A stretch of DNA of 64,000 bases. Source: Escherichia coli. Lineage in GTDB: Bacteria > Pseudomonadota > Gammaproteobacteria > Enterobacterales > Enterobacteriaceae. Both the position numbers and the translations under genes were made by a program. This document shows, in pieces, positions 19,824-27,908 of the stretch (positions are counted from its first letter, which is position 1; each line of letters begins with the position of its first letter). The notes below the pieces were generated by a model. It made no database searches. It was not told the origin of the DNA and was given only the letters and a program-made list of their open reading frames with translations. The DNA lies in assembly GCF_050920415.1 (NCBI RefSeq), contig NZ_CP169309.1. One strand, given 5' to 3'.

Positions 19824-20135
19824 ATGCACATCATTTCTAAAGCGCCATTTGAAGAGTCTGCGCGTAAATATCCTAACGACGCTCTGGCTCTACACTCATT
19901 GTATCGGGTTATTAAGGAAACGGATTTTTCTACGCCAGAAGAAATGCGAACGGCGTTTCCCAACCTCGACAATTTTAAATATCGCAATAAATGGTACGTT
20001 CTGGATGTAGGCGGGAACAATCTTAGGGTTATTGCCTACATAAACTTTGTTAATAAGCGGTTCTTTGTGAAGCACATAACGAATCATGCCGAGTATGACA
20101 AACTGACACGTTACTACAGAGAGAACAAAGAATGA
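19824..20135 (+). CDS. HigB-family type II toxin (RelE/ParE-superfamily mRNA interferase), accessory gene
   Basis: 103-aa ORF; FPNLDNFKY...VGGNNLRVIAY...HITNHAEYD pattern resembles HigB as I recall it; AAGGAAG Shine-Dalgarno; toxin-first order; 4-bp ATGA overlap with the downstream antitoxin. Confidence 0.75.
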   Translation: MHIISKAPFEESARKYPNDALALHSLYRVIKETDFSTPEEMRTAFPNLDNFKYRNKWYVLDVGGNNLRVIAYINFVNKRFFVKHITNHAEYDKLTRYYRENKE

Positions 20136-20551
20136 CTGCTAATGCTGCACGCGCTGTTAAAGCAACAAGAGAACTGGTCAATGCAGTCCCCTTTCTGGGA
20201 GGCAGTGACTCAGAAGATGATTATCGTGAAGCACTGGAACTGGTCGAATATTTGATTGAAGAAGATGACACCAATCCACTTATCGACTTTCTGGCGAGCC
20301 GTATTGCAGAATATGAAAACAACCACGAAAAGTTTGCAGAGTTCGATAAAGCCGTTGCAGCAATGCCGATTGGCGTGGCGTTACTTCGCACGCTGATTGA
20401 TCAACATAATCTGACCTATGCGGATTTGAAGAACGAAATCGGCTCTAAATCCCTGGTCAGTCAGATTTTGTCTGGACAAAGATCCCTGACGATATCCCAC
20501 ATTAAGGCACTTTCAGCCCGATTTGGCGTTAAGCCGGAATGGTTTCTTTGA
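20132..20551 (+). CDS. HigA-family antitoxin with C-terminal XRE-type helix-turn-helix
   Basis: 139-aa ORF; C-terminal SKSLVSQILSGQRSLTISHIKALSARFGV HTH; start overlaps toxin stop. Confidence 0.75.
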   Translation: MTANAARAVKATRELVNAVPFLGGSDSEDDYREALELVEYLIEEDDTNPLIDFLASRIAEYENNHEKFAEFDKAVAAMPIGVALLRTLIDQHNLTYADLKNEIGSKSLVSQILSGQRSLTISHIKALSARFGVKPEWFL

Positions 20552-20578
20552 TTTTTGACAGATGCCAAACGCCAGATT

Positions 20579-20658
20579 GCCCGATGTGCTGCGCTTATCG
20601 GGCCTACATGTCGCACGAACTATGTAGGCCGGATAAGGCGTTCACGCCGCATCCGGCA
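20579..20658. repeat. BIME: two REP elements in opposite orientation
   Basis: GCCCGATGTGCTGCGCTTATCGGGCCTACA and TGTAGGCCGGATAAGGCGTTCACGCCGCATCCGGCA are typical REP palindromes. Confidence 0.8.
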
Positions 20659-20665
20659 CGTTTGC

Positions 20666-23556
<2,891 letters not shown>

Positions 23557-23641
23557 CGGATTTTATCCTGTTATCAGTAGGGTAGAGGTAGTTGTTATCA
23601 GTCGACGTGACGGGAAATTGCCGATGCTGAAACGGAATTAA

Positions 23642-23653
23642 GAAACCGGTTTC
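23642..23653. promoter_or_regulatory. Perfect 12-bp palindrome GAAACCGGTTTC, candidate AscG (LacI-family) operator
   Basis: Perfect palindrome in the ascF-ascG divergent promoter region. Confidence 0.6.
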
Positions 23654-23715
23654 ACAAAATCATGAATAGTTGATACTGATTAAGCAAGAGAGTTAATTGC
23701 TCATTTTTTATATTT

Positions 23716-23729
23716 GTGAAACCGGTCAC
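23716..23729. promoter_or_regulatory. Second AscG-type operator-like site GTGAAACCGGTCAC
   Basis: Shares the AACCGGT core with the first palindrome, 74 bp away. Confidence 0.5.
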
Positions 23730-23815
23730 CTGAATATTTTTCCCGCTGCTTGCGCAAGGACAATCAGCCAACGGTGCAGTACACTGCGTTGATTGCGTGT
23801 AAAGGGATGAAAATG

Positions 23816-24826
23816 ATGACGACGATGCTGGAAGTGGCGAAGCGCGCCGGGGTTTCAAAAGCGACCGTTTCCCGCGTGCTTTCAGGTAATGGCTACGTCA
23901 GCCAGGAGACTAAAGATCGCGTGTTTCAGGCGGTGGAAGAGAGCGGCTACCGCCCAAATTTGCTGGCGCGCAATCTGTCAGCGAAGAGTACCCAGACGCT
24001 AGGGCTGGTAGTGACCAACACGCTTTACCACGGCATTTATTTTAGTGAATTACTGTTTCATACCGCGAGAATGGCGGAAGAGAAAGGGCGTCAGCTGCTA
24101 TTGGCAGATGGCAAACATAGCGCCGAAGAAGAACGCCAGGCGATTCAGTATCTACTGGATCTGCGCTGCGACGCCATTATGATTTACCCGCGCTTTTTAA
24201 GCGTAGATGAGATTGATGACATCATTGACGCACACAATCAGCCGATAATGGTGCTCAATCGCCGCCTGCGCAAAAACAGCAGCCATAGTGTCTGGTGCGA
24301 TCATAAACAGACCAGCTTTAACGCCGTGGCAGAGTTGATAAACGCCGGACATCAGGAGATTGCTTTCCTTACCGGTTCGATGGATTCCCCCACCAGCATT
24401 GAACGCCTTGCCGGATATAAAGACGCGCTGGCGCAGCATGGTATTGCACTCAATGAAAAACTTATCGCTAACGGTAAATGGACGCCTGCCAGCGGGGCCG
24501 AAGGGGTAGAAACGTTGCTCGAACGTGGGGCTAAATTTAGCGCGTTAGTTGCCAGTAACGACGATATGGCGATAGGTGCGATGAAAGCGTTGCATGACCG
24601 TGGTGTAGCGGTGCCGGGGCAAGTGTCGGTTATTGGATTTGATGATATCGCAATTGCCCCCTACACCGTTCCGGCGCTCTCCAGCGTAAAAATTCCGGTG
24701 ACTGAGATGATTCAGGAAATAATTGGGCGGCTGATATTTATGCTCGATGGTGGTGCTTACTCACCGCCGAAAACCTTCAGCGGAAAACTAATCCGCCGCG
24801 ACTCACTCATTGCTCTTTCGCGATAA
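23816..24826 (+). CDS. ascG: LacI/GalR-family repressor of the asc operon
   Basis: 336 aa from MTTMLEVAKRAGVSKATVSRV (HTH); supplied ORF has a 22-aa upstream extension. Confidence 0.9.
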   Translation: MTTMLEVAKRAGVSKATVSRVLSGNGYVSQETKDRVFQAVEESGYRPNLLARNLSAKSTQTLGLVVTNTLYHGIYFSELLFHTARMAEEKGRQLLLADGKHSAEEERQAIQYLLDLRCDAIMIYPRFLSVDEIDDIIDAHNQPIMVLNRRLRKNSSHSVWCDHKQTSFNAVAELINAGHQEIAFLTGSMDSPTSIERLAGYKDALAQHGIALNEKLIANGKWTPASGAEGVETLLERGAKFSALVASNDDMAIGAMKALHDRGVAVPGQVSVIGFDDIAIAPYTVPALSSVKIPVTEMIQEIIGRLIFMLDGGAYSPPKTFSGKLIRRDSLIALSR

Positions 24827-24839
24827 ACATTGTCATCAC

Positions 24840-24876
24840 ATGTCATCGTCACTAGTGTCGATGACATCGTTTTTTC
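24840..24876 (+). terminator. Rho-independent terminator after ascG
   Basis: ATGTCATCG-tcactagtgt-CGATGACAT hairpin followed by CGTTTTTT. Confidence 0.75.
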
Positions 24877-24975
24877 TGCATTGCAGAATTTAATTTCTTT
24901 AAATAACAATGAATTAAAAATTGGCATGATTTGTGAATGTATCGGCAGCATTAACTGTCATTGCTGGAGAATTTG

Positions 24976-25503
24976 ATGAACCGTTTCATCATTGCTGACG
25001 CGAGTAAATGTATTGGTTGTCGTACCTGTGAAGTGGCGTGCGTGGTTTCTCATCAGGAGAATCAGGACTGTGCATCGCTGACCCCGGAAACTTTTTTACC
25101 GCGAATCCATGTCATTAAAGGTGTGAACATTTCCACGGCGACAGTCTGCCGTCAGTGTGAAGATGCACCGTGCGCTAACGTCTGCCCGAATGGTGCTATC
25201 AGCCGTGATAAAGGGTTTGTTCATGTCATGCAGGAACGTTGCATTGGTTGCAAAACCTGCGTTGTGGCTTGCCCGTATGGTGCGATGGAAGTGGTAGTGC
25301 GTCCGGTGATTCGCAACAGCGGCGCAGGGCTTAACGTACGCGCTGACAAAGCCGAAGCTAATAAATGCGACCTCTGTAACCATCGTGAAGACGGCCCGGC
25401 GTGTATGGCTGCTTGCCCGACCCATGCGCTGATTTGTGTCGATCGTAATAAACTTGAACAACTGAGCGCAGAAAAACGCCGCCGCACGGCGCTGATGTTC
25501 TAA
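24976..25503 (+). CDS. hydN: Electron transport protein HydN (4Fe-4S ferredoxin-type)
   Basis: 175 aa from [15 protein letters not shown]; four CxxCxxCxxxCP-type clusters. Confidence 0.93.
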
Positions 25504-25655
25504 AAATCTTACAGAACTGTTCTGGCATCAAAGGAATTCCCGGAAATATTCGTAGAATACGGAGCGGGCGGTATCGCCAACCTGTGACTACCGGATGCGA
25601 CGCGGTCGTGTCCGGCTGGGCGGGTTACGCAATTCATGATGGCGGGAATAACTCA

Positions 25656-27908
25656 ATGGCAAAAAACACATCTTGCGGTGTCCAACTGCGTATTCGTGGC
25701 AAAGTGCAGGGCGTCGGTTTTCGTCCCTTTGTCTGGCAACTGGCACAGCAATTAAATCTTCACGGCGATGTCTGTAATGACGGCGATGGCGTGGAAGTCC
25801 GGTTGCTGGAAGATCCGGAAATGTTTCTTGTTCAATTGCATCAGCACTGCCCGCCGCTGGCGCGTATTGATAGCGTCGAATGTGAGCAGTTTATCTGGAT
25901 GCAGCCGCCCACTGAGTTCACCATCCGCCAGAGCGCGGGCGGCGTCATGAATACGCAAATTGTTCCCGATGCCGCAACTTGCCCTGCCTGTCTTGCCGAA
26001 ATGAATACTCCAGGCGAACGGCGTTATCGTTATCCGTTTATCAACTGTACCCACTGCGGCCCGCGTTTCACCATTATTCGCGCGATGCCTTACGACCGTC
26101 CATTTACCGTGATGGCGGCGTTTCCGCTTTGTCCGGCCTGCGATAAAGAATATCGCGACCCGCTCGATCGTCGCTTCCACGCCCAGCCGGTGGCCTGCCC
26201 GGAGTGTGGCCCGCATCTTGAATGGCTAAGTCATGGTGAACATGCAGAACAAGAGGCGGCATTACAGGCAGCTATCGCACAGTTAAAAATGGGCAACATT
26301 GTCGCCATCAAAGGGATTGGCGGATTTCATCTCGCCTGCGATGCGCGTAACAGTAACGCGGTGGCGACACTTCGGGCACGCAAACATCGCCCGGCGAAAC
26401 CGCTGGCGGTCATGTTGCCAGTGACAGAAGATTTACCAGACGCTGCCCGTCAGTTGCTCACCACGCCCGCCGCGCCGATTGTGCTGGTGGATAAAAAATA
26501 TGTTCCGGAACTTTGTGACGATATCGCCCCTGGCCTTAACGAAGTCGGGGTGATGTTGCCTGCGAATCCGCTCCAGCATTTGCTGTTACAGGAACTGCAA
26601 TGCCCGCTGGTGATGACCTCCGGCAACCTGAGCGGTAAACCACCGGCTATCAGCAACGAACAGGCGCTGGAGGATTTGCAGGACATTGCCGACGGATTCT
26701 TGATTCATAACCGCGACATCGTGCAGCGGATGGATGATTCAGTGGTGCGCGAAAGTGGCGAAATGTTGCGCCGCTCGCGGGGGTATGTACCGGATGCGCT
26801 GGCTTTGCCTCCGGGCTTTAAAAATATTCCTCCTGTGTTGTGTCTCGGTGCGGATCTGAAAAATACCTTCTGTCTGGTGCGTGGTGAACAGGCGGTGTTG
26901 AGTCAACATTTGGGCGATTTAAGTGACGATGGCATTCAGATGCAGTGGCGCGAAGCGTTGCGTCTGATGCAAAACATCTACGATTTTACTCCACAGTTTG
27001 TGGTGCATGATGCGCATCCGGGCTATGTCTCCAGCCAGTGGGCGCGTGAGATGAATCTGCCGACGCAAACGGTGCTGCATCACCATGCCCACGCGGCGGC
27101 GTGTCTGGCAGAACATCACTGGCCGCTGGATGGCGGTGATGTCATTGCTTTGACGCTCGACGGTATTGGTATGGGCGAGAACGGCGCTTTATGGGGCGGC
27201 GAGTGCTTGCGGGTGAACTATCGCGAATGCCAGCACCTGGGCGGTTTGCCTGCGGTGGCGCTTGTTGGTGGCGATTTGGCTGCAAAGCAGCCGTGGCGTA
27301 ACCTGCTGGCGCAGTGCCTGCGCTTTGTGCCGGAGTGGCAGAATTACTCTGAAACGGCAAGTGTGCAACAGCAAAACTGGAGCGTGCTGGCGCGGGCCAT
27401 TGAGCGTGGAATCAATGCTCCGCTGGCATCATCGTGTGGGCGGTTGTTCGATGCCGTATCGGCTGCGCTGGGCTGTGCGCCAGCCACGTTAAGTTATGAA
27501 GGTGAAGCGGCTTGTGCTCTGGAGGCGCTCGCAGCTTCGTGCCACGGAGTGACGCATCCGGTGACGATGCCGCTGGTGGACAATCAACTGGATCTCGCCA
27601 CTTTCTGGCAGCAGTGGCTGAACTGGCAGGCTCCGGTTAATCAACGCGCGTGGGCGTTTCATGATGCACTGGCGCAGGGTTTTGCCGCGTTGATGCGTGA
27701 GCAGGCCACGATGTGCGGTATCACTACGCTGGTATTTAGCGGTGGGGTTATTCATAACCGTTTGCTGCGTGCACGTCTGGCGCATTATCTTGCTGATTTT
27801 ACGTTGCTCTTCCCGCAGAGTTTACCTGCGGGGGATGGCGGGTTGTCTCTGGGGCAGGGGGTTATTGTTGCGGCCCGTTGGGTGGCGGGTGAAGTCCAGA
27901 ACGGATAA
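25656..27908 (+). CDS. hypF: Carbamoyltransferase HypF ([NiFe]-hydrogenase maturation)
   Basis: 750 aa from [10 protein letters not shown]; acylphosphatase domain, two CxxC zinc-finger pairs, YrdC and Kae1-like domains. Confidence 0.95.

Follow-up and report, generated by a model that had tools for sequence, protein, structure and literature searches.

The question raised by this locus is what the palindrome and the related second site between the divergent genes ascF and ascG do, and whether the two act together. The locus was analyzed within a window of 64 kb (the whole stretch of DNA studied), which is E. coli chromosome with 100% identity to strain MFDS1022581 across the queried stretch and about 95.5% identity to K-12. 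Positions 23557-23815 of the window are exactly the 259 bp that separate the start of ascF at 23556 (minus strand) from the annotated start of ascG at 23816. A preliminary description had read the two sites as operators of the LacI-family regulator AscG and had raised the possibility of DNA looping between them. That interpretation was partly supported: it was essentially right yet incomplete, with a CRP box missed and looping overplayed. The region very probably corresponds to the control region already known for the asc (arbutin/salicin/cellobiose) system of E. coli, in which AscG would act both by promoter occlusion and by anti-activation.

The genes flanking the region are listed here with their coordinates in the window.

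20666-22090, minus strand: ascB, 6-phospho-beta-glucosidase, 474 aa, intact (Pfam Glyco_hydro_1).
22099-23556, minus strand: ascF, PTS EIIBC beta-glucoside transporter, 485 aa, intact (Pfam PTS_EIIB and PTS_EIIC).
23816-24826, plus strand: ascG, LacI/GalR-family repressor, 336 aa, intact (annotation and Pfam).

Pfam analysis placed a LacI helix-turn-helix (PF00356) at residues 3-48 of AscG and a Peripla_BP core (PF13377/PF00532) at residues 60-330, and no domain was found past the sugar-binding core in the search of the protein. AscG is 98% identical to its K-12 counterpart, with the DNA-binding domain (residues 1-60) the same residue for residue and every one of the 8 amino-acid substitutions in the regulatory domain. 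Because the DNA-binding domain is that of the K-12 protein, binding data obtained with K-12 AscG should carry over directly to the present strain. The gene order ascB-ascF / ascG-hydN-hypF is also that of K-12, and the present allele is about 5% diverged at the DNA level. The intergenic region itself carries 14 substitutions relative to MG1655, all of them elsewhere than in the two sites and their flanks; both boxes and the putative promoter hexamers described below are the same base for base. The stretch 20560-26760 (ascB-ascF-ascG-hydN-hypF) is about 90-98% identical to K-12, typically 95%, a divergence that we judge high for E. coli core genes and that may reflect a divergent or recombinant allele. 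Identity of at least 99% over the intergenic region and ascG was found in just 5 of about 4,700 E. coli records. To the left of about 20560, homology to MG1655 collapses. Between hycI and ascB, at 19824-20551, lie one gene for a HigB-family toxin and one that is antitoxin-like, with an HTH; MG1655 is without them, and the present strain thus differs from K-12 by a HigB/HigA-like pair inserted beyond ascB.

The palindrome GAAACCGGTTTC was found at 23642-23653, just where it had been described, and is perfect over its 12 bp. It forms the core of the following element.

23639-23656, no strand assigned: AscG operator 1, TAAGAAACCGGTTTCACA, holding the 12-bp perfect palindrome 23642-23653; dyad centre 23647/23648.

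The half-sites read AGAAACC and GGTTTCA and together match 13 of the 14 positions of TGAAACCGGTTTCA. The AscG consensus in the abstract of Ishida, Kori and Ishihama from 2009 is reportedly TGAAACC-GGTTTCA. Operators of the LacI/GalR family are normally even palindromes with a CG centre; site 1 is such a palindrome, within the range of 14-20 bp and with a central CG pair, and the second site has these properties for one half alone. The centre of operator 1 lies 92 bp from the ascF ATG, with the cognate regulator gene divergent and adjoining, and falls within the positional norm of the family (30-140 bp upstream of the regulated gene). The AscG binding sequence from PascF is given as TGAAACCGGTTTCT in PMC8667592 (Table S3), and its reverse complement occupies positions 23641-23654. 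In that work, AscG repressed strongly when the operator was placed at +1 of a test promoter and almost not at all when it was placed at -61. Judged by its sequence, site 1 is therefore the already characterised AscG operator of the ascFB beta-glucoside operon. No second match to the 12-mer with one mismatch or fewer was found anywhere in the 64-kb window. Perfect 12-bp palindromes as a class are ordinary there (18 observed against 20.8 +/- 4.4 expected from Markov-1 simulations), and the idea that the palindrome is a statistical oddity was dropped.

Two smaller features were observed around operator 1. The base that flanks the palindrome at 23641 is an A/G polymorphism within Escherichia (AAGAAACC versus AGGAAACC), and its G form agrees with the cross-genus consensus TAGGAAACC. 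A third AscG-like half-site, TGAAACGG, lies at 23628-23635, on the side of operator 1 that faces ascF and some 14 bp away from it; its 'GTTTCA' is kept in Escherichia, Citrobacter, Kluyvera, Leclercia and Aeromonas and is not kept in Enterobacter or Klebsiella/Raoultella.

The second string, GTGAAACCGGTCAC, was likewise found in place, at 23716-23729. It lies within two overlapping elements.

23715-23730, no strand assigned: CRP box, TGTGAAACCGGTCACC, TGTGA-N6-TCACC, matching 9 of 10 positions of the core consensus TGTGA-N6-TCACA; centre 23722.5.
23715-23732, no strand assigned: AscG box 2, made up of TGTGAAACC and GGTCACCTG; dyad centre 23723/23724, 76 bp from operator 1.

AscG box 2 consists of one perfect 9-bp AscG half-site (TGTGAAACC) and the central CG; its other half is a CRP half-site, and the dyads of the two elements are offset by 1 bp. 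The two sites have in common a perfect 14-nt inverted repeat, ACCGGTTTCACAAA (23645-23658) and TTTGTGAAACCGGT (23713-23726). When the 259-bp region was dinucleotide-shuffled 1000 times, separated inverted repeats never exceeded 10 nt, and it is thus the relation between the two sites, not the palindrome itself, that exceeds chance. The distance of 74 bp given in the preliminary description is measured from start to start of the strings as they had been delimited; in register (GAAACCGGT to GAAACCGGT, or between the CCGG centres) it is 76 bp. The assignment of the second site as an AscG half-site stood, and fell short in overlooking the CRP box. According to the abstract of Ishida et al. 2009, AscG reportedly interferes both with RNA polymerase and with the binding of CRP, whose box overlaps. 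PMC3505978 gives two AscG binding sites for ascFB, citing Ishida et al. 2009, and the reading of the sites as AscG operators in a divergent control region thus agrees with published work for both of them. As for CRP, ascF is a known target recovered by genomic SELEX, and ChIP-seq in ETEC H10407 gave GGTGACCGGTTTCACA, the reverse complement of site 2, as a CRP site for ascG/ascF with high confidence; the 16-mer of the present strain is identical to it.

The two elements were compared across species in a scan of one genome per species, which yielded 80 loci with an AscG orthologue (66-98% identity) from Escherichia, Citrobacter, Enterobacter, Lelliottia, Leclercia, Klebsiella, Raoultella, Kluyvera, Phytobacter, Pseudocitrobacter, Aeromonas, Sodalis and other genera. 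At all 80 loci ascF is divergent from ascG, with a spacer of 192-266 bp in 79 and of 459 bp in one. The operator is likewise present in 80 of 80; its commonest 18-mer is TAGGAAACCGGTTCCACA, and most Aeromonas loci have the perfect 18-bp palindrome TGTGGAACCGGTTCCACA. A CRP-like box (at least 8 of 10 positions) stands at the expected place in 78 of the 80 loci, as against just 16 such matches among 18,577 other positions, and its distance to the operator centre is 73-75 bp in 74 loci and 65 bp in 4 more. On the other hand, the N6 spacer of the box takes 36 forms across the loci. The AACCGG spacer, which creates the second AscG box, was found only in three Escherichia-type loci and in the window, and at the remaining 77 loci the spacer of the CRP box is unrelated, the nearest being AACCGA in Kluyvera. 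Given this pattern, the ancestral and conserved design is one AscG operator and one CRP box at a fixed distance, and the dual AscG/CRP box is an Escherichia feature. Site 2 is primarily the box through which CRP acts on the ascF promoter; in Escherichia an AscG half-site is present there as well. Since the CRP-like box is in place in 78 of 80 loci and the AscG-like spacer is restricted to Escherichia, the seemingly degenerate half of site 2 is the other CRP half-site and not a sign of decay. Within the genus, both boxes are invariant in 7 diverse Escherichia sequences, and substitutions spare both boxes and both ascF hexamers. By itself, the lack of substitutions in the boxes (none in about 40 bp, with about 2.2 expected at 5.4% divergence) does not reach significance, so the argument for constraint rests on the cross-genus data.

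An ancestral CRP box with a freely variable spacer invites the explanation that site 2 is a CRP box and nothing else, that it resembles an AscG box only incidentally and that AscG represses through operator 1 alone. All loci outside Escherichia work with one operator, and box 2 has one good AscG half-site only, for which reason its affinity for AscG may be low. However, the identity of box 2 to operator 1 spans 14 nt and extends 3 nt beyond the CRP core, to a length not reached in the 1000 shuffles, and none of the Escherichia sequences examined departs from the spacer while nearby intergenic positions vary. The two AscG sites given for ascFB in PMC3505978 argue in the same direction. We therefore consider an incidental resemblance unlikely and retain the reading of site 2 as a CRP box that doubles as an AscG box in Escherichia.

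A scan of 23500-23870 for promoters (threshold 9 of 12 hexamer positions) and terminators returned none of either. The ascF and ascG promoters listed below were consequently read from blocks conserved across genera.

23682-23687, minus strand: putative ascF -35 hexamer, TTGCTT; lies in a 'tcTTG' block conserved across genera in the operator-anchored alignment and invariant in Escherichia.
23659-23664, minus strand: putative ascF -10 hexamer, CATGAT; separated by 17 bp from the -35 hexamer, in an 'ATgatT' block that all genera have 3 nt upstream of the operator.
23757-23785, plus strand: putative ascG promoter, with -35 AGGACA (23757-23762), a 17-bp spacer and -10 TACACT (23780-23785); corresponds to 'GacAa' and 'AGTACACT' blocks in 81 sequences.

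The conserved ascF -35 and -10 blocks sit between the CRP box and the operator, and the substitutions found within Escherichia cluster in the 17-bp spacer that separates them. The ascF hexamers match consensus at just 7 of 12 positions, which explains why this promoter was missed by the consensus scan. So weak a core promoter fits dependence on an activator, although it does not prove it. The hexamers suggest an ascF transcription start near 23652, relative to which operator 1 would be centred at about +5.5; for the CRP box the position would be about -70.5, a value that, based on the putative hexamers only, compares with class I positions of -61.5, -71.5, -82.5 and -92.5.

Some further features of the region concern its promoters and leader. 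Together with the AscG operator, the segment GGTGCAGTACACTGCG at 23773-23788 is the most conserved intergenic block from Escherichia to Aeromonas, and it overlaps the putative ascG -10 hexamer. It has a palindromic look (GCAGT-AC-ACTGC), with one arm position that varies between C and A, uncompensated. An RNA hairpin was rejected on account of this variation, and a sigma-54 promoter was rejected on hand inspection because the GG/GC spacing is one base off. The segment is left as a -10 region plus conservation that a -10 hexamer alone leaves unexplained. The ascG promoter has been reported as induced in vivo in EHEC. In the ascF leader, a direct repeat, TGTTATCAGT, occurs at 23569-23578 and 23593-23602, 24 bp apart, and a 24-bp deletion in E. 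coli E272 takes out exactly one repeat unit, resembling slippage between the repeats.

These elements can be combined into a scheme for the control of ascFB. The weak ascF promoter would depend on cAMP-CRP bound at 23715-23730, from where, in a class I geometry, it would recruit RNA polymerase. An AscG dimer on the operator at 23639-23656, spanning the predicted start, would block RNA polymerase. In Escherichia, the AACCGG spacer and the left CRP half-site together make up a perfect AscG half-site with its central CG; because of this half-site, a second AscG dimer could occupy the CRP box and keep the activator off it. The net result would be repression by two routes, promoter occlusion and anti-activation. 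The parts of the scheme that concern CRP activation and operator 1 draw on identity to experimentally characterised sequences and probably apply here, and the hexamers, the start site and AscG occupancy of box 2 are what we infer for the present strain. Since the AscG half-site and the CRP site are on the same base pairs, binding of the two proteins at box 2 should be mutually exclusive.

The proposed arrangement is much like that of the lac promoter, with a weak, activator-dependent promoter, an upstream CRP site of class I and a CG-centred operator of a LacI-family repressor over the start. In lac, CRP binds at -61.5 and the LacI operator O1 lies at +11, so that the CRP-to-operator distance is 72.5 bp as compared with 75 bp in asc. 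The two systems differ in several respects: the C-terminal tetramerisation helix of LacI is absent from AscG, and no looping was detected with the AscG core domain; the auxiliary AscG site overlaps the CRP box, whereas those of lac lie far upstream or downstream; and, according to PMC3505978, no inducer is known for AscG. There is also a likeness to the CytR/CRP system, in which a LacI-family repressor at or beside a CRP site represses partly by neutralising the activator. CytR, however, binds cooperatively with CRP as an anti-activator, whereas the AscG half-site and the CRP site share their base pairs, with dyads 1 bp apart.

The spacing of the boxes, 76 bp from centre to centre, bears on the looping that had been raised in the preliminary description. 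Two AscG dimers on the two boxes would interact and loop out the DNA between them in the manner of lac or gal, and LacI is known to form stable loops at operator spacings of 75.5-77.5 bp. AscG, however, stops right after its sugar-binding core in the Pfam analysis and is without the C-terminal extension expected of a bidentate tetramer or dimer of dimers. In a looping assay, the chimera LLhA/Q55A, in which the LacI DNA-binding domain is joined to the AscG core (and which is thus not native AscG), depended on operator spacing by less than 2-fold, and the GalR and TreR chimeras differed from it in this respect. Nor is the second operator conserved alongside the first, as box 2 is restricted to Escherichia-type loci and absent from all other orthologous loci. 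What is conserved is the distance of 74-75 bp from CRP box to operator, and this spacing of about 75 bp is best understood as promoter geometry, not loop geometry. DNA looping at ascF-ascG is thus not supported, and we regard it as very unlikely. Least credible of all is a reading of the palindrome not as a protein-binding site but as a product of chance or a structural element (a hairpin, a terminator or an RNA element): 12-bp palindromes do occur at the chance rate in the window (18 against about 21 expected), but the hairpin/terminator reading was dropped after the scan of 23500-23870 found no terminator, the sole Rfam match at a permissive E-value was meaningless (13.6 bits against a gathering score of 86, hence not near threshold), and the sequence is kept beside a LacI-family gene in 80 of 80 loci and is identical to an experimentally used operator, two findings that in effect already refute this reading. 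Occlusion and anti-activation by AscG at a CRP-dependent promoter remains the preferred explanation.

Since AscG is intact and matches K-12 throughout its DNA-binding domain, the asc operon is presumably repressed in the present strain as it is in K-12. The identity of both boxes and of the putative hexamers, together with the intact repressor, suggests that nothing in the locus predicts behaviour unlike that of K-12. The locus was found in 4,699 of 5,426 complete E. coli genomes, with the intergenic region and ascG contiguous in 4,698. A check for IS insertions had been suggested in the preliminary description; the sole clear disruption among the 4,699 genomes with the locus is an IS621 insertion in strain WL164. 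Natural activation by IS elements is therefore rare among sequenced genomes, and IS disruption of ascG was rejected as a common natural exit from crypticity. Megablast found no match to the ascF-ascG locus in the other 727 of the 5,426 complete genomes, in agreement with a report of ascG as an accessory gene that is less frequent in ExPEC.

The restriction of the AACCGG spacer to one lineage, as found in the comparison of loci, allows a tentative suggestion about the origin of box 2, which we hold as possible but doubtful. The box may be a lineage-specific gain, in which the CRP-box spacer was rewritten to AACCGG and anti-activation was thereby added to an older mechanism of occlusion. This extra lock could help to make asc 'cryptic' in E. 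coli, and relatives with a single operator would possibly be normally inducible; the link between the second AscG box and crypticity is speculation.

The AscG operators and the CRP box are already known and published, and they are unchanged in the present strain. For a well-studied E. coli locus such as this one, the results therefore have little import beyond correct annotation, and their comparative value is modest, lying in the conservation of the operator and CRP geometry (about 75 bp) from Aeromonas to Escherichia. The sole new angle is the lineage-restricted AscG half-site laid over the spacer of a CRP box. It could serve as a simple case, open to test, in which a half-site for a repressor evolves within an activator site, in the spacer where sequence is unconstrained.
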